Virus record (IMG/VR): IMGVR_UViG_3300011008_000125
Strand: one strand, 5' to 3'
Origin: a virus
DNA: 47,741 nt
Shown here: positions 1 through 47,741 of the stretch, piece by piece
Position numbering within the stretch: position 1 is the stretch's first letter
How the letters are laid out: every line of letters starts with the position of its first letter
The notes under the pieces: generated by a model
What the model saw: the letters and a program-made list of their open reading frames with translations, nothing else
Told to the model about the DNA's origin: nothing
The model's database searches: none
Position numbers and translations under genes: made by a program

Positions 1-99
1 GCAAAGCCGTGGTCAGCCACATAAACGTGTTCAGTACGGTCACCGGCTGCGAACGTTGACGGGTTCTTGATGTTGATGCCGTCAACCCACTTCCAGATG
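1..99. repeat. Terminal direct repeat (copy 1), identical to 47643-47741
   Basis: Compared by eye: gcaaagccgtggtcagccacataaacgtg...cccacttccagatg occurs at both ends. A fixed-length overlap like this is typical of circular assembly closure. Confidence 0.9.
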
Positions 100-1553
100 T
101 TGCCCCACACGTTTTCTTCACCGCGATAGGAAACGGAAGTTTTGCCGTCTGCCGTTTCGGTTGTGGTTTCACCACCCTTTTCGTTGATGGTGGATGCAGC
201 GCGACCGGAAACATTGCCAAGTGAAGCCGTGGAACCGGTCAACGAAGAACAGTTGTAAGAACTGTTGTCCGTAATGGACACAACACCCTGACCAATAGCA
301 GACTGCATGTTCATGGTTCCGTATTCAACCATCATAAGCAGCTGTGAAGCGGAAAGCGTCTGAATGGTCTGCTGCTCCCAACCAGTACCACGGTTCTGTG
401 CAAGCTTGCGGAATCCGGCACGGGTTGCGCCCGTCTGTGACAGACCGGATGTGGGCTTTGCACCGGCAACAGACGCAAGTTTGTCACCCGTGGTGACCGT
501 GAAATCAACCGTCTGTGCGTCATCCAGCACATACGCGTCAGCGGACACGTCATAAGTGCATCCTTCATAAGCGGAAAGGTAAATCAGGTCATTTTCCTTG
601 CCGTTGCGGATGAACGCCGGATGAAGCTTGAACCCGGTTTCAGGCGTTTCACAGATGTAATAACGAAGCTTCCGCGCACAGTAACCCATGCCGTCACCTT
701 CATTGATTTCTTCCAGTTCCAGCGGAACAACCTTGTAATAGAACTTAGGCTGTTCAACCATGACCTGAACCGCCGTGCCAACCGCGTATTCAACGCCGTC
801 CACGGTAACGGCGGTTTCCAGCGCACCAGTTTCCGTGTAACCTTCATCACCGTAATACGCCACCACAACACCGCCGTCCGTCATGATGCAGCGCCGTCTG
901 CCGCCAAAGCAGTGAACCGCATCAAAGTCAGCACCGGCGGTTTTGCCGAATGCCCCACCAAGCCGGGTGAACCGCCGGTTGCTAAAATCGACTTCAAGAC
1001 CAAAGATGTGGGAATCGTTGTAGCCAATGAAGCCCTTGATGTCAGCAATATCAGCCTGTGCCGCTTCCATGTCCGTCTGTGTTGCGATCCCGGCGGCAGC
1101 TGTGTCAATGGTGACCGCTGTAGCGTTTGCCACCGTGATGGGTACACTGTAGGTGATGCTTGACGGGGTAATGCTGTTGTATGCCGGGAACCAGTCAGCT
1201 TTGTCTGTTTCCGTGACATAGATTGCATAAAGGAAATCCGTTCCGTCAGTCCACTTTGCGAACACACCAACTTCAGTGATGTAGAAACCGCCCGTTGTGT
1301 TGTTCTGGTTGGATGCCACAAGCGTCAGCTTTGTGGTTGCCGGATTCACGTATTCAGCGCGGGTGATAGCATACTCACCACGCTGTGACTTCAAAGCGGT
1401 TGCCGCCTGAAGCTGTGCCATAGTAGGCGCGGAACCCCAATCACCATTACCAATCTGGAATTTGGTGAACTGGATGTTGACCAAACCAGCCTGTGCATTT
1501 GCAATCAGCTGTAAGGCTTTAGTTGTTAATACACCCTGTTTAAATTCAGCCAT
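1..1553 (-). CDS. Tail fibre protein, DGR target (5' part; continues across the junction into 47315-47642; about 626 aa in total)
   Basis: Manual translation from the ATG at 1553 gives MAEFKQGVLTTKALQLIANAQAGLVNIQFTKFQIGNG... The frame stays open to base 1 and joins ...EHVYVADHGFADD of ORF 47315..47662. The unique length of 1881 nt equals 627 codons. The RBS AAGAAGGG lies upstream. The N-terminus is paralogous to 2896..4020. Confidence 0.85.
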   Translation of the reverse strand, partial: MAEFKQGVLTTKALQLIANAQAGLVNIQFTKFQIGNGDWGSAPTMAQLQAATALKSQRGEYAITRAEYVNPATTKLTLVASNQNNTTGGFYITEVGVFAKWTDGTDFLYAIYVTETDKADWFPAYNSITPSSITYSVPITVANATAVTIDTAAAGIATQTDMEAAQADIADIKGFIGYNDSHIFGLEVDFSNRRFTRLGGAFGKTAGADFDAVHCFGGRRRCIMTDGGVVVAYYGDEGYTETGALETAVTVDGVEYAVGTAVQVMVEQPKFYYKVVPLELEEINEGDGMGYCARKLRYYICETPETGFKLHPAFIRNGKENDLIYLSAYEGCTYDVSADAYVLDDAQTVDFTVTTGDKLASVAGAKPTSGLSQTGATRAGFRKLAQNRGTGWEQQTIQTLSASQLLMMVEYGTMNMQSAIGQGVVSITDNSSYNCSSLTGSTASLGNVSGRAASTINEKGGETTTETADGKTSVSYRGEENVWGNIWKWVDGINIKNPSTFAAGDRTEHVYVADHGF

Positions 1554-1571
1554 TGTTTTACCCTTCTTTCT

Positions 1572-1606
1572 TTTGAAATTCAAAACCCCGGTTGTTCACC
1601 GGGGTT
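1572..1606 (-). terminator. Rho-independent terminator between fibre gene 1615..2892 and the DGR-target fibre gene
   Basis: The 8-bp GC stem aaccccgg(1584-1591)/ccggggtt(1599-1606) is followed on the minus strand by TTTTGAATTT. Confidence 0.6.
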
Positions 1607-25013: not shown

Positions 25014-25325
25014 TTACTCCTTCCTGAACAGCTTTTTGTTTGTTCTCATGATCTTTTCCAGCATCACCGCGTCAACCAAGCCTTTGTCAAAACACAAAAG
25101 GTATGACAGTTCAGCCATCATGATTGACACGTCAACGGTTTCTTCCATCAGGTTTGTCAGCGCTTCACCCGGTTCCGTGTCCGTTGGCTGACCCTTGCCG
25201 GATGCACGAAGCAGCTTGTTACACGCCTGAATCAGTTCAGCGCATTCTTCCATGCACTGTGTCAGTACATTTTCCACGCCCATCACTTTGGCGTTCTGTT
25301 CCAGCATTCTGTATAAATCCATCAT
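25014..25325 (-). CDS. MazG-like nucleotide pyrophosphohydrolase
   Basis: 103 aa. A CMEECAELIQA...EETVDV helical EExxE-type pattern is present. Confidence 0.5.
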   Translation of the reverse strand: MMDLYRMLEQNAKVMGVENVLTQCMEECAELIQACNKLLRASGKGQPTDTEPGEALTNLMEETVDVSIMMAELSYLLCFDKGLVDAVMLEKIMRTNKKLFRKE

Positions 25326-34194: not shown

Positions 34195-35533
34195 CTGTTA
34201 AATCCCTTCCTTCCTTCAATGCTTTTAGGTTCTTTACTTCAATACTGTTCTGTACCAGCGGATAGTAATAAAAACATGTCTGATCCTGACCAATCCTGTG
34301 CGTCCGCTTCTTTGACTGTTCCCATAGGTCACAGCTGCCTTTACCAAGCGGAAGCGTGAAATACACTGTGCGCCGTGCTTTCTGGAAGTTGCCGCCCATA
34401 GCACCCGCCTGATACTGAATGAAGGTGATGCTGTTGGATTCCTGTTCATAGGCGTTCAGGTCTTTGGTGCTGCCGTTCAGGATGCTGACCGGTCTGCCGA
34501 TTTCAGCGGCAATCCGCTTCAGGGCTTCCATTTCTGCCGTGAAGTTGTAGAAGACAATCAGCCGGTCTTCCGTGCTTTCAAAGATGTCCCGCATAGCTTT
34601 CAGCTTATCCTTGTGATACTGACCACACAGCTGCCGCGCATAAAGCGTTTTGGTCAGGTTGTTGTCACCTACCAGTTCCACCCGTGGTGTCACATCTTTA
34701 CCAAAGAAATCTGAATCATCATGGAATTCCTGAAAATTCATGGTGTCCAACATCAGGTATCCGCTGTCAATGAACCGCTTGTATTCTTTGGTAGGTTTCA
34801 ACATGATTTTCTGTTCAACCTGATCCGGCAGTGTCAGCACTTCTTCCGTTTTCTTGAACAGCGCACCATGTTCCGCAAGCTTCCGCTTCAGGTGGTCAAC
34901 GTTCTTATACCCGGTCACCACTTCCTGAAGGAACCCGGTTCCGTAATCCACCCAATCCGTGATGATGTATGACCCATAGAAAGCACGTTTTGAAATCTTC
35001 CAGCCCAACAGGTTGCACTGTGACCAAAGCTTTTCATATTTTCCGGCTGTTGGTGTGCCGGATAGAAGTATCACGCTTTCAGGCTTCATCTTCAGCACGT
35101 ACCGTGACCGCTTTGCCCGTTCATTGCTTATCAGTGAAGATTCATCCAGCATCAGGGTGAAGCCGGTCATATGACCGTAATATGAACGCCTGAACAACAA
35201 GTCATAATTGATAACCCCCACAATCATGCCGTCCGTGGTGATGCCTGATTCAGCGTGATTCTTGAATTCCATTGCTGACCGCTTCTTTGTCAGGTCAAAC
35301 GCCTGAATGTCAGGGTAATGGTCTGTGAAGTGCTGCAACCAGTCATCAATTTTGGATTTCTGACAGACAACCAGATTCACATAGTTGTTAAGCAGCCACA
35401 TCTTTTCAGACCCCATGAAGGTTTTCCCAAGACCCATATCATAAAAATATGCAACGTGGTTCTTGTCAGCTGTCAGGTCAAGCGCTTCAGCCTGATGGGG
35501 CATAAGCTTCAGCATATCCTGATTCCGGTACAT
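34175..35533 (-). CDS. SNF2-family helicase
   Basis: Motif I is DMGLGKT and motif II is MLDESS. A C-terminal helicase domain (HRIGQ) is present. Confidence 0.8.
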   Translation of the reverse strand: MYRNQDMLKLMPHQAEALDLTADKNHVAYFYDMGLGKTFMGSEKMWLLNNYVNLVVCQKSKIDDWLQHFTDHYPDIQAFDLTKKRSAMEFKNHAESGITTDGMIVGVINYDLLFRRSYYGHMTGFTLMLDESSLISNERAKRSRYVLKMKPESVILLSGTPTAGKYEKLWSQCNLLGWKISKRAFYGSYIITDWVDYGTGFLQEVVTGYKNVDHLKRKLAEHGALFKKTEEVLTLPDQVEQKIMLKPTKEYKRFIDSGYLMLDTMNFQEFHDDSDFFGKDVTPRVELVGDNNLTKTLYARQLCGQYHKDKLKAMRDIFESTEDRLIVFYNFTAEMEALKRIAAEIGRPVSILNGSTKDLNAYEQESNSITFIQYQAGAMGGNFQKARRTVYFTLPLGKGSCDLWEQSKKRTHRIGQDQTCFYYYPLVQNSIEVKNLKALKEGRDLTDDLFKN

Positions 35534-36708
35534 TCCCGGAAGATTTCAGCGTCAAAATTCGGCAGCGCCTTGATTTCATCACGGTCTTCATCATTCAGGC
35601 TGTCCCACCAAAGTTGTGCATTCTCTGATTCATCCAGCACTTTCATGTAACCTTCCGTGGTCTTATATTCCGGGTGTGCGTTCTTTTCATCATCCGTCAT
35701 TCTATAATCAGGAACCCATTCAACTACTTTTTTAGGAATCTTATTCATCAGGTAATATGCGCGGCTGTTCCACCAATCACGCAAAGTCCAGTCAGACGGT
35801 TTGTTGAACATGCTGATCTTTGGTTCAACAGTCATGAAGCATCCGTTATTAAAAGATGATTTGTTCCAGTCCCCGGTGTTCCTGTTCCCGGTGTTGCAGT
35901 TCCCGGTGTTGCAGTCCCCGGTGTTCCTGTTCCCGGTGTTCCAGTTCCCGGTGTTCCTGTTCCCGGTGTTGCAGTCCCCGGTGTTCCTGTTCCCGGTGTT
36001 GCAGTTCCCGGTGTTGCAGTTCCCGGTGTTCCTGTTCCCGGTGTTCCAGTTCCCGGTGTTCCTGTTCCCGGTGTTGCAGTTCCCGGTGTTGCAGTCCCCG
36101 GTGTTGCAGTTCCCGGTGTTCCAGTCCCCGGTGTTCCTGTTCCCGGTGTTGCAGTTCCCGGTGTTGCAGTCCCCGGTGTTCCTGTTCCCGGTGTTGCAGT
36201 CCCCGGTGTTCCTGTTCCCGGTGTTGCAGTTCCCGGTGTTCCTGTTCCCGGTGTTCCTGTTCCCGGTGTTGCAGTTCCCGGTGTTCCTGTTCCCGGTGTT
36301 CCAGTTCCCGGTGTTCCAGTCCCCGGTGTTCCTGTTCCCGGTGTTGCAGTCCCCGGTGTTCCTGTTCCCGGTGTTCCTGTTCCCGGTGTTCCAGTCCCCG
36401 GTGTTGCAGTCCCCGGTGTTGCAGCCTTTTTGTACTTCATCCCACGGGATTTCACGGATGATATGCAGCTTGTTGGTGCAATATTTAATGTTGTCATCTG
36501 TCACCACATCACCCAGCGCTTCAACTTCAGCAACCACCGTTTCATTCGGGTCATACGGATAAAAGTTGAACACTTGCGGCAGATGTTCACAAAAATGCAT
36601 TCCACGTTCACACACCCTTAAATCAACATCTTCAGTGAAGGTTTCACCCACCTGATACTGCTTATCACGGCATGTCCAATCTTTTTTAAATGCTTTATAT
36701 CCCTTCAT
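35509..36708 (-). CDS. Repeat protein: globular N-terminal domain plus 37 NTG(N/D)(R/C/W) pentapeptide repeats plus C-terminal domain
   Basis: 399-aa ORF. The N-terminus MKGYKAFKKDWTCRDKQYQVGETF resembles a widespread phage domain. The repeat block is encoded by the 15-bp array at 35866-36420. Confidence 0.8.
   Translation of the reverse strand: MKGYKAFKKDWTCRDKQYQVGETFTEDVDLRVCERGMHFCEHLPQVFNFYPYDPNETVVAEVEALGDVVTDDNIKYCTNKLHIIREIPWDEVQKGCNTGDCNTGDWNTGNRNTGNRNTGDCNTGNRNTGDWNTGNWNTGNRNTGNCNTGNRNTGNRNTGNCNTGNRNTGDCNTGNRNTGDCNTGNCNTGNRNTGDWNTGNCNTGDCNTGNCNTGNRNTGNWNTGNRNTGNCNTGNCNTGNRNTGDCNTGNRNTGNWNTGNRNTGDCNTGNCNTGNRNTGDWNKSSFNNGCFMTVEPKISMFNKPSDWTLRDWWNSRAYYLMNKIPKKVVEWVPDYRMTDDEKNAHPEYKTTEGYMKVLDESENAQLWWDSLNDEDRDEIKALPNFDAEIFRECTGIRIC
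35866..36420 (-). repeat. 37 x 15-bp in-frame tandem repeat array
   Basis: The plus-strand units are (cct|gca|cca)gt(t|c)cccggtgtt. The 555 nt divide into exactly 37 units. Confidence 0.95.
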
Positions 36709-36872: not shown

Positions 36873-37570
<698 letters not shown>

Positions 37571-37574
<4 letters not shown>

Positions 37575-42094: not shown

Positions 42095-43114
42095 ATGTCA
42101 CGAAGAAACCCGAACGGTTACGGATGTGTGACCAAGCTGAAGGGCAACCGGTCACGTCCGTGGGTGGTCAAGGTCACCGTCTATGACAGTGAAGGGAACG
42201 CCCATCAGCAAAATGTTGGATATGCGGCAGATGAAGCGGCAGCGCGTCAGATGCTTGCCGCCTACAACAATAACCCGTGGGACGCGAAACGCGAAACCAT
42301 CACGCTGGTTGAAGTGTTCAACCAATGGAAGGAACTAAAGCTTCCAAAAATGGAAAAAGGGTCACAACGCGCAATGCGTTCAGCGTTCAAGTATTGTTCA
42401 AAGTATTACGGCATGAAATACCGCGCACTGAAAACATTTCAGATGCAAGACACCATTGACAGCTGTGGTCACGGGTACAGCACCCAGCGCCAAATAAAAG
42501 CAATGTGGGGTCACCTTGACCGGTTTGCCTTTGAAATGGACATTGTTGACAAGATGTACAGCCAGCTGACCACAACAGACCCAATCACCGAATCAGGAAG
42601 AACACCCTTCACCCAAGAACAGATTGACGCGCTTTGGAAGCTGGAAGCCGCCGCCCCTGATCCGTGGGTTGAATCCGTCCTGATTTACATTTATACCGGC
42701 TTCAGGCTGTCAGAAATTCTTCAGCTTCCAATGGAACGGGTGAACTTTCAGGAATGGTACATCACAGCCGGGATTAAAACGGCAAACGGAAAGAACCGGA
42801 TTGTTCCGATCCATGACCGCATCAAGCCGTTCTTCACCGCCCGGAAAGATGACCCTTACCTTTTCACCCTGAATGGAAGGAAAATAGTGAAGTCCCAATA
42901 TTATGCGTTTTGGTATGAAGCGCTGAAAAAGATAGGTGCTGACAAGACACCGCATGAAGCGCGTCACACTTTTGAAACCCTGTTGGACAACGCCAACGGG
43001 AACCGGAAGTGTATTGATATGCTAATGGGTCACAAGTCCACGGACACCGGGAACCGGGTTTATAACCACAAAACCATTCAGCAATTACGGGATACCATAG
43101 CACTGTTAAAATGA
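42095..43114 (+). CDS. int: Tyrosine integrase
   Basis: TGFRLSEIL carries the catalytic R. The C-terminus HEARHTFETLL...LMGHKSTDTGNRVYNH matches the HxxR...H...Y pattern. Confidence 0.85.
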   Translation: MSRRNPNGYGCVTKLKGNRSRPWVVKVTVYDSEGNAHQQNVGYAADEAAARQMLAAYNNNPWDAKRETITLVEVFNQWKELKLPKMEKGSQRAMRSAFKYCSKYYGMKYRALKTFQMQDTIDSCGHGYSTQRQIKAMWGHLDRFAFEMDIVDKMYSQLTTTDPITESGRTPFTQEQIDALWKLEAAAPDPWVESVLIYIYTGFRLSEILQLPMERVNFQEWYITAGIKTANGKNRIVPIHDRIKPFFTARKDDPYLFTLNGRKIVKSQYYAFWYEALKKIGADKTPHEARHTFETLLDNANGNRKCIDMLMGHKSTDTGNRVYNHKTIQQLRDTIALLK

Positions 43115-43326: not shown

Positions 43327-44796
43327 TCAGTTGGGGAATTCGCCCACATCCTGAACACCGTTTTCATCCGTTACATACAGTCCGCATTCCAGCGGATGAC
43401 CGGCACGGGGTTCAAAGTAATACCACTTACCGTCAATCTGTTGCCACCCTGTGACGGCATATCCGTCCTTATTGAAATAGTACCTGTGACCGTTTATGTC
43501 CTTCCAGCACTTTGCAAGGTATGTGGTTTCAGAATCCGCATACCACCACCCGTTGCTGTCATGGTTCCATCCGGGTGTATATTTCTGACCAACAATGTCA
43601 TAGTCCGGCGCACCATACCCGGCAATGTCCGCATGGTCAAAAGAATATGCTTTCTTGCAGACCGCGCCGCCATTGGCAATGACAGCGTTTCCGCTGGAAG
43701 TGTTACCTTCAATAGTGTAAAAGATTCTCTGTTTTGTGTCCACCTGATAAATCAGCGCAATGTGGTGGATCCGCGTTGAATTCTTGAAGAATACCAGCCA
43801 ACCGGCTTCAGGAACGGAACCGGGATCATGCCAACGTCCGGCGGTCTTGAACCGTGCCGCCTGTGTGGGTGTATAGAAAGTCCACCCATCAGTTACCGCG
43901 TACAACAGCCTTTTGGCTGTTTCTTTGGTAAAAGCCCGGATGAAGCACCATACAAGGAAGCACAGACACCACGCCTGACCTTGAAATGCAGTCTTGATTT
44001 CATCCCAATACTTTGTGTAGTTGTTGCTTCCGGCGTTTGCCGTCTTGTCATACAGCGCCGGTTTGCTTCCGTCCTTCTTTTCAAGGTATCCTTCTTCTGC
44101 AAGCGCAATCTTTACAAGTGTGTTTTCCGCGCTCATATCATCACCGTTCCCTTCTTCAACCGCATGTTCTTCAATGAACTGCTTACATTTCAGATGCCGT
44201 CCCCAATATCGTGTGTCACCAACCTGATTGTCAGATGACGTGTCTTTCTGATCCGTGACCAAAGCAGCCATGATGTGGTCAAGGTCATAGTTGCCGCCCG
44301 TCCGGTCAAATATCCGTTCAGCGGCTTTCTTGCCGCCTAAGTGCCTGATTTCACAGTACATCATCTGTGCTTTCACGTCATCTGTGTACTTTTCCGCGCA
44401 ATCTTCAACAAATTCGACCATCAGCATTTGAAACAGCGCGTCCTGACATTGCCGTCCAATACTGGAAGAAATCAGTGTCAGCAGTGTTGCCCTTTGTTCA
44501 TCGGTTGGGTTCCAGCGTTCTTTTTCCCAATCATGACCAAGCATTTCAACAATGCTTCCGTCCGTGTCCACTTGCCACACAATTTCAGGCGCAACGTCAA
44601 AAATCATCTGAATAAGCCGTTTTGCTTCCGCGCCATAGTTTTGCGCCCAACCCAGCGTGATGGTGTGTTCCTTTTCGCTGTTGGTGTAAGGGGTCGCATA
44701 GGCGGCGTAATCACGCCGCCCATACACCTGACCGCCTGATTCAACAGCACCAATGACGTTTGTCAGAACGTCCATGTTCTGTTGATTCATGGTCAC
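43327..44796 (-). CDS. Multidomain endolysin (lysozyme/SLT-like N-terminus, CHAP, cell-wall-binding repeats)
   Basis: The N-terminus has GAVESGG. The CHAP-like region has GQAWCLCFLVWCF...HIALIY. The C-terminal repeats are WKDINGHRYYFNKDGYAVTGWQQIDGKWYYFEP. Confidence 0.8.
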   Translation of the reverse strand: MTMNQQNMDVLTNVIGAVESGGQVYGRRDYAAYATPYTNSEKEHTITLGWAQNYGAEAKRLIQMIFDVAPEIVWQVDTDGSIVEMLGHDWEKERWNPTDEQRATLLTLISSSIGRQCQDALFQMLMVEFVEDCAEKYTDDVKAQMMYCEIRHLGGKKAAERIFDRTGGNYDLDHIMAALVTDQKDTSSDNQVGDTRYWGRHLKCKQFIEEHAVEEGNGDDMSAENTLVKIALAEEGYLEKKDGSKPALYDKTANAGSNNYTKYWDEIKTAFQGQAWCLCFLVWCFIRAFTKETAKRLLYAVTDGWTFYTPTQAARFKTAGRWHDPGSVPEAGWLVFFKNSTRIHHIALIYQVDTKQRIFYTIEGNTSSGNAVIANGGAVCKKAYSFDHADIAGYGAPDYDIVGQKYTPGWNHDSNGWWYADSETTYLAKCWKDINGHRYYFNKDGYAVTGWQQIDGKWYYFEPRAGHPLECGLYVTDENGVQDVGEFPN

Positions 44797-45221
44797 CCTT
44801 CTTTCTGTTCGTTGTTTGCCTTTGTGGTCAGAAGGTCAATAGCCTTTGTGATGATAGGCGGCATGGGTATACCCATAAGACCGGCGTTTTCCACAATGCT
44901 GATGACCTCATTTGTGAAGAATCCTATAATCACCGCATCCTTCACATAGTCAATACCAAGGTAAACGTCAACACCCCGTGCAATCACCACGAACGCCAAA
45001 GTGAAGACCTTTCTGCAAAGTCCTTTCCACCCGGCGCGGCTTTCAAGCGCACCGTGCTGTGATTTTTTGGAAGCATGGAATACCCCGGCAACCACAAGAC
45101 CGCTGATGTAATCAGTAATCATTGCCATTACTAAGTATTGCAAAGCTGCCGACCAACCACCCAACAGTGACGCGACCGCACCACCAACAACTCCGATGAT
45201 GGTACAAATTTTCTGTTTCAT
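44793..45221 (-). CDS. Holin (Phage_holin_4/TcdE-like)
   Basis: 142 aa with several TM segments. ITDYISGLVVAG...NEVISIVENAGLMGIPMP is present. It overlaps the endolysin start. Confidence 0.8.
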   Translation of the reverse strand: MKQKICTIIGVVGGAVASLLGGWSAALQYLVMAMITDYISGLVVAGVFHASKKSQHGALESRAGWKGLCRKVFTLAFVVIARGVDVYLGIDYVKDAVIIGFFTNEVISIVENAGLMGIPMPPIITKAIDLLTTKANNEQKEG

Positions 45222-45338: not shown

Positions 45339-45467
45339 TTATTCGTCAATCAGGTCTTCATGCCCGGAAGCAATCAGAATTTCCCTGACTGCCGGTTTCA
45401 GTTCTGCCGGGATTTCGTGAAACGCTTTCTTTCCCTTGATGATAAGACTTGCATACACTTTTGCCAT
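45339..45467 (-). CDS. XkdX-like small phage protein (42 aa, below the ORF-track cutoff)
   Basis: Manual translation gives MAKVYASLIIKGKKAFHEIPAELKPAVREILIASGHEDLIDE*. The RBS GAAAGGACGG is present and the gene sits just before the holin. Confidence 0.6.
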   Translation of the reverse strand: MAKVYASLIIKGKKAFHEIPAELKPAVREILIASGHEDLIDE

Positions 45468-45485
45468 AATGGTCACCGTCCTTTC

Positions 45486-45755
45486 TTACGACATGGATTC
45501 ATACAGTTCCGCAAGGGCAAGCTGTGTGTCAGTCAGGTCTGCTTCCAGCGCCGCGTTCCTGTCATCCATCATCTTGATGTATTCATCCTTGTCATACTGT
45601 GTCAGGGTGTATTCATAGCCGTCAAAACCGCCATCCTGATCTTCCGCACCGGCTTCATGCACCGGCTGGATGTCAGACGCAATCCAAACTGAATATTCAT
45701 CAATGATCTTCTGTTCAGGCTGCGTGTTGCTGCGTGTGTTCGGATACACTTTCAT
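45486..45755 (-). CDS. Small acidic phage protein (XkdW position)
   Basis: The ORF was trimmed to MKVYPNTRSN with the RBS AAAGGTGGGA. The C-terminus is ALEADLTDTQLALAELYE. It overlaps the RT 3' end by 41 nt. Confidence 0.55.
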   Translation of the reverse strand: MKVYPNTRSNTQPEQKIIDEYSVWIASDIQPVHEAGAEDQDGGFDGYEYTLTQYDKDEYIKMMDDRNAALEADLTDTQLALAELYESMS

Positions 45756-46911
45756 TTTGTTTCCCACCTTTCTTTTTCTTGATGTGGTCAAGATAGTATT
45801 TGTCAGCGTATGGCTGAACAGGTGCTATGTACTTTTCAGTCAGCCGGAAGCTGTCACAGTGTATGACCCACCCTTTGTATGACGCGACAGAACACCATTC
45901 TGAATAATTCATTTCCTTGCCGGATTCCACCTTGACGCGTAAGGCGGTCATTTTCCGCTTCAGGGAATCACACGTTGATTTCCTCAACAGGGTGTAATTC
46001 CTGAAAATGCGGTAACCAACAAAGTCAACACCACGGATGAATGACGGGAAAATCTGGTAATTGTCCTTGATCCGTAAGTTCAGGTTGGTCTTCAGGTACA
46101 AATTCATGGATTCAAGCAGCTGTTGCAAGCGTTCCTTGCTGTCTGCAAATACACAAATGTCATCCATATAACGGTAATAATGCTTTACGTGCATTTCTTC
46201 CTTCATCCAATGGTCAAAGCCTGTCAGGTAAAGGTTCCCGTCATACTGTGAAAAATAATTGCCTATGGGAATGCCCAAGCCGTCAATGAACTGTTCACCG
46301 TTGCGCTGAACAATGGTGATGGGCTTTCCGCATGACTTGTAAAACGCAATGTTTTCTTCTGTTGCCGGACATGTGCTGATGCTGTCAATGATTTCATCAA
46401 TCACGGAAAGCAACGCCGGGTCTTTATACTTGCGCCTGAACTGCTTCTTCAGGATGTCATGGTCAATGGAAGGATAGAACTTCTTACAGTCTATCTTCAG
46501 GCAATAAAGCATTTCTTCCGGGCTGTGATCCACGGCGCGGCGTAACTTCCTGAATGCGTCATGTATGCCCTTGTTAGGAATCGCACTGTAAGAATCTTCT
46601 GTGAAGTAATCAAGCAGTGTCGGTTCAATGACCTGAAGGATTGCCCATTGCGCGATACGGTCAGGAAAGAACGGAAGCTTGTATATTTCACGTTCCTTCT
46701 TACCTTCCACCTTTTTGAACATGCCATATTCTGACGTGCGGTAATACCCGGTTTGCAGCATCCATTGCAATGCCGCAAGGTAATATGCCGGTCTTTTCTC
46801 AATCAGTTTTACTTCCGCATACCAGCCTTTGCCTTTCTTAGCGTTTTTATATGCAAGCATAAGGTTGTCCATGCTGCATATCTTTTCAAATAAGAACCCA
46901 TAGCGTTTCAT
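45715..46911 (-). CDS. DGR reverse transcriptase
   Basis: The N-terminus is MKRYGFLFEKICSMDNLMLAYKNAKKGK. PIGNYFSQ is the DGR-type [I/L]GxxxSQ motif. YRYMDDICVFADS is the YxDD active site. A cognate TR/VR pair lies upstream. A GTG at 46923 is an alternative start. Confidence 0.9.
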   Translation of the reverse strand: MKRYGFLFEKICSMDNLMLAYKNAKKGKGWYAEVKLIEKRPAYYLAALQWMLQTGYYRTSEYGMFKKVEGKKEREIYKLPFFPDRIAQWAILQVIEPTLLDYFTEDSYSAIPNKGIHDAFRKLRRAVDHSPEEMLYCLKIDCKKFYPSIDHDILKKQFRRKYKDPALLSVIDEIIDSISTCPATEENIAFYKSCGKPITIVQRNGEQFIDGLGIPIGNYFSQYDGNLYLTGFDHWMKEEMHVKHYYRYMDDICVFADSKERLQQLLESMNLYLKTNLNLRIKDNYQIFPSFIRGVDFVGYRIFRNYTLLRKSTCDSLKRKMTALRVKVESGKEMNYSEWCSVASYKGWVIHCDSFRLTEKYIAPVQPYADKYYLDHIKKKKGGKQNESVSEHTQQHAA

Positions 46912-46923
46912 TTTTGTATGCAC

Positions 46924-47217
46924 TTCACCGAATCTTCAACAAGTCAGCCCTACGTGCTGACAACCTACAAACACAGTTTAGTAATTCAACCCGAAGGTCT
47001 TAATGTATTGGCAAGCGCCACGGCAACAGTTCCGGCAGTATATTTTAAACCGCCCACGTTTTCAGGTAGGTCTTACCGTGTAGGCGGTTTTGTGCATGTA
47101 CTAAGTGCCTGCTGATATTCCGATTACGATTACCCGAACTGTTATTCAAATTCAGATAGAACGTGCCTGATTTCGTGCCATTATTCCAATTCGTGCTACA
47201 TTTAACAACGTGCTATT
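46924..47217 (-). ncRNA. DGR template RNA (TR plus structured spacer up to the RT start)
   Basis: The TR is followed on the minus strand by aaaccgcc...ggcggttt/cacg...cgtg nested stems (47047-47090). A UUCG-loop hairpin (gaccTTCGggtt) and a gtcagc/gctgac hairpin follow. Confidence 0.6.
47099..47217 (-). repeat. DGR template repeat (TR)
   Basis: It gives a gap-free 119-nt alignment to the VR at an offset of 246. It is non-coding (TAG in the VR frame) and rich in AAY codons. Confidence 0.9.
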
Positions 47218-47269
47218 GGTTTACTGGTTGCCGTCAAGCCTTGAATCTTATAGCATGGAACCATTACCT

Positions 47270-47302
47270 TCAAAAAACATCAGGCGGCATCAAGCCGCCT
47301 GA
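47270..47302 (-). terminator. Hairpin 3' of VR: fibre-gene terminator and DGR target-recognition-type hairpin
   Basis: A 9-bp stem tcaggcggc/gccgcctga has a 5-nt loop. On the minus strand it is followed by TGTTTTTTG. Confidence 0.65.
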
Positions 47303-47314
47303 TATAAGCAGTGT

Positions 47315-47741
47315 TTACGCGGCGGCAGCGTCTGACGGGAAATACACCAAGCGCCCGCCGATATACCGATAACGAATACCCGAACCGTAATACAAAGCCA
47401 GATAGAACGCGCCCGACTCCGCGCCACTATTCCAACGCGCGCCACACTTAACAACGCGCCAACCTGTGTTCTGGTTGTAATGGTAGTCACCAACCGGAAC
47501 GGAAGAACTTGCGCCGTTTCCGACTTCTGCCGGGATGAACAGCCAATCAAAGTCTTCCGAATAGGCAAACGCATTGATGTATGCGCCGCCCGTGTACGGC
47601 GGGTGAATACCAGTGTCTTCATAGTTGGTGGCGGTATCGTCCGCAAAGCCGTGGTCAGCCACATAAACGTGTTCAGTACGGTCACCGGCTGCGAACGTTG
47701 ACGGGTTCTTGATGTTGATGCCGTCAACCCACTTCCAGATG
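47315..47741 (-). CDS. Tail fibre protein, DGR target (3' part, C-type-lectin/FGE-like variable domain)
   Basis: ...NVWGNIWKWVDGINI...VADHGFADD...GWRVVKCGARWNSGAESGAFYLALYYGSGIRYRYIGGRLVYFPSDAAAA*. The stop is at 47315-47317. The ORF continues in frame from 1..1553. Confidence 0.85.
   Translation of the reverse strand, partial: IWKWVDGINIKNPSTFAAGDRTEHVYVADHGFADDTATNYEDTGIHPPYTGGAYINAFAYSEDFDWLFIPAEVGNGASSSVPVGDYHYNQNTGWRVVKCGARWNSGAESGAFYLALYYGSGIRYRYIGGRLVYFPSDAAAA
47318..47344 (-). promoter_or_regulatory. IMH-like GC-rich element at the 3' end of VR (absent from TR)
   Basis: The minus strand reads TTCCCGTCAGACGCTGCCGCCGCG between the end of TR homology and the stop codon. TR diverges here. 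Confidence 0.45.
47345..47463 (-). repeat. DGR variable repeat (VR)
   Basis: It has 28 mismatches to TR, all at TR adenines on the coding strand. The 78 non-adenine positions are identical. Confidence 0.9.
47643..47741. repeat. Terminal direct repeat (copy 2), identical to 1-99
   Basis: See copy 1. Confidence 0.9.

Follow-up and report, generated by a model that had tools for sequence, protein, structure and literature searches.

Diversity-generating retroelements (DGRs) have been grouped into architectures according to the genes that accompany their reverse transcriptase (RT). In the survey of Wu et al. 2018, avd was present in 74% of 372 curated DGRs, and Architecture A, a core of template repeat (TR) and RT with no accessory gene, made up 29%; lineage 3 is without avd, an Avd profile search found none elsewhere in the genomes concerned, and an Avd-independent mechanism was proposed (PMC5758913). 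A phage example is crAssphage LMMB, in which the order target gene-variable repeat (VR)-TR-RT occurs without avd, with a tail-collar fibre as target and a lineage-3 RT (PMC7290462). For the Bacteroides lineage 3a (Architecture E), the acidic protein CH1 (160–169 aa, pI 4.7) has been proposed as an accessory (PMC5758913). In the Avd-dependent system of phage BPP-1, a duplex between TR and spacer (TR:Sp) is the template:primer for cis-priming, and Avd contacts the N-terminal extension of the RT (bRT) and holds a spacer stem-loop. Here we analyse the DGR of a virus from IMG/VR (record IMGVR_UViG_3300011008_000125; 47,741 nucleotides, hereafter the window), in which no Avd gene was recognised. We consider it probable that this locus is a minimal DGR that operates without Avd and follows the published order of target gene, TR and RT (Architecture A1, lineage-3-like).

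The element is a DGR: an adenine-only TR/VR pair lies at the 3′ end of a target gene, and a DGR-type RT adjoins the TR. The cores of the VR (47346–47459) and the TR (47100–47213, with 37 adenines), both on the minus strand, are 114 nt long and 79% identical, and each of their 24 mismatches falls at a TR adenine (24/24). Weaker homology continues for a few nucleotides on either side of the VR core, and on the TR side it reaches about 47231. Both repeats occur once in the whole genome. The VR lies within the last ∼140 nt of the fibre gene and ends ∼30 nt before its stop codon; about 100–130 nt separate it from the TR, depending on the choice of repeat ends, and the spacer between TR and RT measures about 176–188 nt. 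The close spacing of the repeats and the structured spacer ahead of the RT, both described in an earlier first-pass annotation of this DNA, are thereby confirmed. The order on the minus strand is fibre gene with VR, hairpin, TR, structured spacer, RT, an 89-aa acidic protein, a 42-aa protein, holin and endolysin. The earlier placement of the DGR between the fibre gene and the lysis genes holds, as do all coordinates given with it.

The RT gene (45715–46911, minus strand) encodes 398 aa from an ATG at 46911, within a frame that is open up to a GTG at 46923. ATG 46911 is probably the true start, because AGTGCATACA just upstream is kept as RNA in all relatives. The protein matches PF00078 (2e-17) and phrog_1423 (2e-119) and contains the motif IGNYFSQ, of the DGR type [ILV]GxxxSQ, together with YMDD. 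The target is the second fibre gene, of the tail-collar type and 636 aa in length, which spans the window ends: its 5′ part occupies 1–1583 (minus strand, start codon near 1583) and its 3′ part 47315–47741 (minus strand, stop codon 47315–47317), with in-frame translation across the circular junction. The N-terminus of the protein matches PF12571 (Phage_tail_fib, 1.5e-11).

An exact 99-nt terminal repeat (1–99 equals 47643–47741) identifies the window as a circular assembly and hence as a complete phage of 47,642 bp; the whole phage could therefore be screened for Avd. All open reading frames (ORFs) in the six frames that reached 65 aa were compared with Pfam, as 43 non-overlapping ORFs of up to 300 aa (E ≤ 0.1), 123 further six-frame ORFs, 19 large proteins (E ≤ 0.01) and the local genes. 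No ORF of this size in the complete genome matched PF05635 (Avd), HRDC or MutS_I. The NCBIfam screen was complete for the alternative ORFs and for 13 single proteins and took in the best 25 of 101 families for the 58 main ORFs; unannotated small proteins were also scanned directly with NCBIfam, and 13 window proteins were compared with PHROGs. BPP-1 Avd, run as positive control, was recovered by NF033474 (DivGenRetAVD, 5.7e-31) and phrog_3206 (8.8e-29), and neither family was found for the window proteins among the matches listed. When the six-frame translation was searched by phmmer with BPP-1 Avd as query, the lowest E was 0.69. The first-pass annotation had reported no recognisable Avd or HRDC gene, and these searches agree. 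One all-helical protein of 103 aa (25014–25325) was considered as a hidden four-helix-bundle Avd and rejected: it falls among the NTP pyrophosphohydrolases in PHROGs and gave no match to any Avd model.

With its adjacent upstream target and the order TR-RT, and with no accessory gene found, the locus belongs to Architecture A1; it is neither an Avd-containing DGR (Architecture B, BPP-1 type) nor an HRDC- or MSL-containing one (Architectures C and D). The RTs of annotated phages that come closest are those of Psychrobacillus phage Perkons (46.6%) and of crAss-like phages (37–44%; LMMB 38%, E 2e-63). The Perkons locus has the same layout, with ORF176, 381 nt, the RT and an overlapping ORF174. 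Placement near lineage 3 is suggested indirectly by RT identities (37–44% to crAss-like RTs against about 27–30% to bRT). Like Architecture A1 and lineage-3 systems, LMMB among them, the window has a single adjacent target, target (VR), TR and RT on one strand, no gene found for avd, HRDC or MSL, and apparently none for CH1. It further shares with LMMB a tail-collar-type fibre as target and a cassette that closes the block of structural genes; the two differ in that LMMB is a crAss-like podovirus whereas the present phage is a PBSX-like temperate myovirus, and in an RT identity of only ∼38%. The absence of Avd is in itself no new discovery. The rarity implied by the first-pass annotation, which had set the locus against Avd- and HRDC-type systems, is contradicted by the 29% of curated DGRs with Architecture A, by the A1 and lineage-3 elements already published (PMC5758913) and by crAssphage LMMB (PMC7290462).

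The Avd-less layout is conserved over a wide range of relatives. In 80 IMG/VR loci with RTs 57–76% identical, the order is always fibre gene, ∼380 nt, RT, an overlapping homologue of the 89-aa gene, a CD1375-family gene (the 42-aa protein in the window) and holin. Fibre stop and RT start are 314–439 nt apart in 70 distinct DGR-positive relatives, an interval too short for a TR plus an avd gene. The layout persists throughout the relatives, whose RTs are 46–76% identical to that of the window; those in the range of 46–55% come from Clostridia and from metagenome-assembled genomes (MAGs) labelled Bacilli and Cloacimonadota. A very widespread, 74%-identical RT was inspected in three places, and the precomputed Pfam annotation of the 10 kb on each side of it contained no PF05635. 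The RT family is large, with 5885 homologues at E ≤ 1e-10, one cluster of which has 3594 members. Hosts of the clade are Lachnospiraceae, Faecalibacterium and other Clostridia, with MAGs labelled Bacilli, Thomasclavelia and Cloacimonadota and, more distantly, Bacteroidota carrying crAss-like phages.

With the 89-aa family as query, relatives devoid of an RT were recovered, their fibre gene being followed immediately by the 89-aa gene. Such DGR-less loci number at least 12, namely 9 of the 101 distinct loci with enough upstream sequence and three shorter ones. They keep a homologous fibre C-terminus and the same order of fibre gene, 89-aa gene and CD1375-family gene, the 89-aa gene mostly lying 20–50 nt past the fibre stop. 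A near-isogenic pair, L081 with and L082 without the DGR, shows 94–97% nucleotide identity except for a clean 1.3-kb indel of TR and RT. The closest relative of the window, a prophage of Oribacterium sp. C9 (L083/L154; amino-acid identity 76% for the fibre, 69% for the 89-aa protein and 79% for the holin), is likewise DGR-less, with the fibre gene directly before the 89-aa gene. Its homology to the window ends at 47334 and resumes at 45780, which defines the 1.55 kb with hairpin, TR, spacer and RT as the indel. The TR-RT indel (1.3–1.55 kb) holds no further gene. Thus, in the comparison of relatives with and without the DGR that the first-pass annotation had suggested, DGR-less relatives keep both small genes and DGR-positive ones add no separate avd.

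The spacer between TR and RT resembles a catalogued RNA. Nucleotides 46914–47025 (minus strand) match the full-length model of RT-17 RNA (Rfam RF03020) with 38.9 bits (E 7e-6), 1.5 bits under the gathering threshold of 40.4. In six relatives (L005, L161, L076, L171, L081 and L169), RT-17 lies directly upstream of the RT with scores of 46–74 bits. As a control, the spacer of BPP-1 matched its own family, Phage_DGR/RT-10 (RF03022). A weaker RT-17 match precedes the RT of the crAss-like phage cr52_1 (L200, 2923–3007), and the LMMB spacer gave no RT-17 match. The RNA comprises a hairpin P1 (47009–47020, minus strand) and a long-range helix (46965–46979 with 46927–46939, minus strand) that encloses a variable hairpin at 46940–46964; the window spacer carries in addition a UUCG hairpin that is not part of the RT-17 model. 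RNAalifold on 52 distinct spacers gave 19 consensus pairs, 15 of them with compensatory changes. Judging from these alignments, the structure in the spacer RNA is genuine. In the paper that described RT-17, RT-10 was the one motif assigned to a DGR, and the other RT motifs were left unassigned, with some speculation about them (Weinberg et al. 2017, PMC5737381); the context of RT-17 as spacer RNA of an Avd-less DGR clade is new here. Directly downstream of the TR, alignment and minimum-free-energy folding place a further stem-loop (CCGCC...GGGCGG, 47050–47087, minus strand), whose sequence varies while a hairpin is kept at the same position in relatives. A small basic ORF of 34 aa in the spacer (47045–47149) was dismissed as a gene, since the region is conserved as RNA, with compensatory pairs, and not as a reading frame.

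The two ends of this region are predicted to pair with each other. The segment CAUGCAC at the TR 3′ end (47092–47098, minus strand) finds its partner in GUGCAUA (46917–46923), the last spacer nucleotides just before the RT start, and in nearly all relatives with a correctly anchored TR end the equivalent pairing is the best RNAduplex solution. Compensatory variants in relatives are CACUAAA/UUUAGUG, CACGAAA/UUUCGUG, CAUAU/AUAUG, GUGUGUGA/UCACACA, UACAC/GUGUA and UAUGCAA/UUGCAUA. By analogy with the TR:Sp duplex of BPP-1, CAUGCAC/GUGCAUA looks like a candidate template:primer-type duplex. Just past the fibre stop, a terminator scan detected a GC-rich 12-bp hairpin followed by a T-run (47277–47305, minus strand; fold energy −24.7 kcal/mol). 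It is terminator-like, and its position matches that of the target-recognition hairpin of BPP-1; we do not claim it as a DGR element, as it is unconserved in most relatives.

The RT itself is most similar to bRT. Its best sequence match in the PDB is BPP-1 bRT (8ub7; phmmer 1.8e-30, identity about 27–30%), and the AlphaFold2 model (pLDDT 82.5) was best aligned by Foldseek with 8ub7_A (8.5e-18, target-normalised TM 0.83). Compared with bRT, the window RT is ∼70 aa longer. The model shows a confident extra subdomain between motifs 3 and 4 (∼residues 162–209), made up of two helices and a hairpin, a four-helix thumb with two helices beyond those of bRT, and a disordered tail (pLDDT about 30). The two systems are alike in the adenine-specific TR-to-VR mutagenesis of a fibre tip, in the position of the cassette after the fibre gene, in the bRT-like RT fold, in a structured TR-RT spacer RNA and in a TR 3′ end that pairs, here by prediction, with the spacer. 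They differ in that Avd (128 aa, between mtd and TR in the order mtd-avd-TR-brt) is present only in BPP-1, in the spacer family (Phage_DGR/RT-10 there, RT-17 here) and in the inserted subdomain and longer thumb of the window RT.

These comparisons suggest how such an element may function. The 1.55-kb module would consist only of the TR, the RT-17 spacer RNA and the RT gene, set between the fibre stop and the next backbone gene. The RT would bind its own RNA directly; the TR 3′ end would pair with the 3′ end of the spacer upstream of the RT start, and cDNA synthesis would be cis-primed, as with TR:Sp in BPP-1. The lineage-specific additions to the RT, namely the subdomain of ∼45 aa that separates motif 3 from motif 4 and the pair of additional thumb helices, would take over the RNA-holding role of Avd, and we infer from the model that these additions and the RT-17 RNA may together make Avd unnecessary. 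The adenine-mutagenised cDNA would then replace the VR and yield a diversified fibre tip, with neither the 89-aa nor the CD1375-family protein needed for mutagenesis. The fuller proposal of a self-sufficient, two-part DGR, in which RT-17 RNA cis-primes, the enlarged RT serves as an RNA 'grapple' in place of Avd, and phages of numerous gut bacteria gain and lose a plug-in module of 1.3–1.55 kb precisely between the fibre gene and its next neighbour, is put forward tentatively; it could well be correct, and we would not rely on it.

Evidence on activity comes from two metagenome contigs (L193 and L194) that share the layout of the window at 88% identity. They are 99.85% identical to each other, with 7 differences over 4612 nt, three of which lie in the 114-nt VR, all at TR-adenine positions; their TRs are identical. 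This pattern argues for a trace of recent mutagenic retrohoming, and thus for an active lineage, as read from sequences of relatives and not of the window genome itself. An exact-pattern scan of viral contigs for VR comparison returned nothing. As a separate observation, independent assemblies with an identical 89-aa protein (L186–L192) break within or just upstream of the TR, as would result if assembly were interrupted by the TR/VR repeat or by heterogeneity of the VR.

The two small genes downstream of the RT were the nearest candidates for an accessory. The 89-aa acidic protein (45486–45755, minus strand; pI 4.05; phrog_18126 at 9e-33) overlaps the RT 3′ end by 41 nt, as had been described, and an overlap of ∼38–41 nt is kept across DGR-positive relatives. 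The protein has no Pfam or NCBIfam family at E ≤ 1, XkdW included, and neither the region nor the protein retrieved anything from annotated phages, whether by near or by protein-level searches. AlphaFold2 (94-sequence alignment, pLDDT 85.6) predicts a four-stranded sheet with one long C-terminal helix, and Foldseek returned no significant match to this model in the PDB or BFVD. Structure prediction of this protein had been recommended by the first-pass annotation, and its outcome is a β-sheet plus helix and not a four-helix bundle. Acidic, and with a sheet and a single helix in its model as opposed to the basic four-helix bundle of Avd, the protein is on this prediction not Avd. The 42-aa protein (45339–45467, minus strand) was assigned to the CD1375 family by NF040910 (2e-9; 37.1 bits, cutoff 22.5) and also matches phrog_1382 (9e-13). 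The only matches listed for it at E ≤ 1 in Pfam and NCBIfam are PF23792 (CD1375-like) and NF040910, with no XkdX model (PF09693, TIGR01669) among them, and its earlier label of 'XkdX-like' is replaced accordingly.

The late operon of PBSX-type phages ends with XkdV fibre, XkdW, XkdX, holin and lysin. The window resembles it in its tail module and in having two small genes between fibre gene and holin, and differs in that the 89-aa protein has no XkdW match and the 42-aa protein only CD1375 matches; the resemblance of the small genes is therefore positional only. Both had been regarded as conserved lysis-cassette neighbours rather than Avd. Conservation and distinctness from Avd stand, as both genes are kept in the at least 12 DGR-less relatives, whereas membership of the lysis cassette does not extend to the 89-aa gene, which travels with the fibre gene. 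From its position, the 89-aa protein is most likely a fibre-associated or assembly factor. The CD1375-family protein is most likely the product of a backbone gene that belongs with the lysis region. The 89-aa gene adjoins the RT because the TR-RT module sits at that insertion point, and the last ∼20 RT codons are the DNA that serves as ribosome-binding site and start of the 89-aa gene in DGR-less phages.

Three explanations had been offered at the outset: that the RT works without Avd, that one of the small proteins has been co-opted, or that the accessory is supplied in trans. The evidence favours the first and disfavours the second. Co-option would make the 89-aa protein a non-Avd accessory translationally coupled to the RT, comparable to CH1 of Bacteroides lineage 3a. 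In DGR-positive loci its gene is indeed always immediately downstream of the RT with the overlap kept, and the protein is acidic like CH1 (pI 4.05 versus 4.7) and without a Pfam family; yet the same gene occupies the same place in the DGR-less relatives, among them the near-isogenic pair and the closest relative, which, together with the length of only 89 aa against 160–169 aa, argues against equivalence with CH1. In addition, the RT tail encoded in the overlap is predicted to be disordered, and conservation there coincides with the ribosome-binding site of the 89-aa gene. We therefore regard co-option as very improbable. Supply in trans, by an Avd-like or nucleic-acid-binding protein of the host or by another prophage, would fit the strict dependence of bRT on Avd in BPP-1. 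Against it, no Avd was found by profile elsewhere in the genomes with avd-less cassettes (PMC5758913), and the RT clade is very large and spans phages of many host groups, which makes a specific host partner unlikely; this explanation, too, appears unlikely.

Finally, the cassette might be a decaying remnant that lost avd and no longer functions. The RT-17 score just below the gathering threshold would fit this, and the TR-RT module has evidently been lost on occasion. The RT ORF is intact, however, with both YMDD and IGNYFSQ, the TR and VR differ at adenines in all 24 cases with no other drift, and the layout is kept down to RTs of 46% identity; the VR-only changes at adenine sites between the contigs L193 and L194, in the same layout, likewise speak against a dead cassette. 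We give this explanation hardly any credence. Several points nevertheless weigh against an Avd-independent DGR. BPP-1, the sole DGR cited here for which reverse transcription has been reconstituted in vitro, requires Avd for cDNA synthesis. Avd is very poorly conserved, so that a search with hidden Markov models could miss a divergent member (PMC5758913). Our Avd screen covered the phage genome, and the check at the level of folds covered part of the phage proteins. The role assigned to the RT insertions derives from a predicted structure, and activity of the RT alone is deduced from sequence. The core of the putative TR-spacer duplex is nearly invariant, its covariation coming from helix extensions and more distant relatives. 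A partner protein translationally coupled to the RT would likewise be consistent with the conserved 41-nt overlap of the RT and 89-aa genes.

The mechanism of Avd-less DGRs has been open since the proposal of Wu et al. (PMC5758913), and the mechanistic studies cited use the Avd-dependent BPP-1. For this question the lineage described here is a clearly delimited test system. It is very common in gut metagenomes, where its RT homologues number in the thousands, its RNA is compact and of a family catalogued in Rfam, and it provides a predicted template:primer-type duplex, natural near-isogenic pairs with and without the DGR, and signs of activity in nature. If true, a single-protein DGR would simplify DGR-based tools for targeted mutagenesis, which now express bRT and Avd.

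The phage that carries the element is a complete, temperate, PBSX-like myovirus of Clostridia, with nearly all genes on the minus strand and a tyrosine integrase at 42095–43114. Pfam matches define a head module (terminase, SPP1-type portal and Mu-F-like head protein), a contractile PBSX-like tail (sheath, DUF2001 tube, XkdN-like chaperone, YqbQ-like protein, sheath initiator, baseplate J and Mu gp48-like protein), two fibre proteins with a tail-collar N-terminal domain, a replication module and repressors. The lysis genes are a holin (44793–45221, minus strand; PF05105 at 6.9e-32) and an endolysin with a CHAP domain and choline-binding repeats (43327–44796, minus strand; Pfam). In L195–L197, which contain the same prophage with an RT 74% identical to that of the window, three different sets of host genes follow the endolysin, indicating that the lysis cassette marks the prophage end and that the phage resides in different host contexts. 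Among the 123 alternative six-frame ORFs, one matches DarA_C (2.7e-16) and another an NrdR-type zinc ribbon (1.6e-10), both outside the ten longest; the picking of non-overlapping genes had thus dropped some real small genes.

Two further repeats were observed away from the DGR. The gene at 35509–36708, whose product is a pentapeptide-repeat protein with DUF7666 at its N-terminus, contains a tandem array of a 30-nt unit (35862–36424; 18.8 copies, 90% matches). A perfect (GT)17 tract at 37366–37399 lies within a minus-strand ORF (36873–37574) that has no Pfam family and encodes THTHTH... at this point; slippage in the tract could possibly shift the frame and so lead to phase variation of a phage gene.

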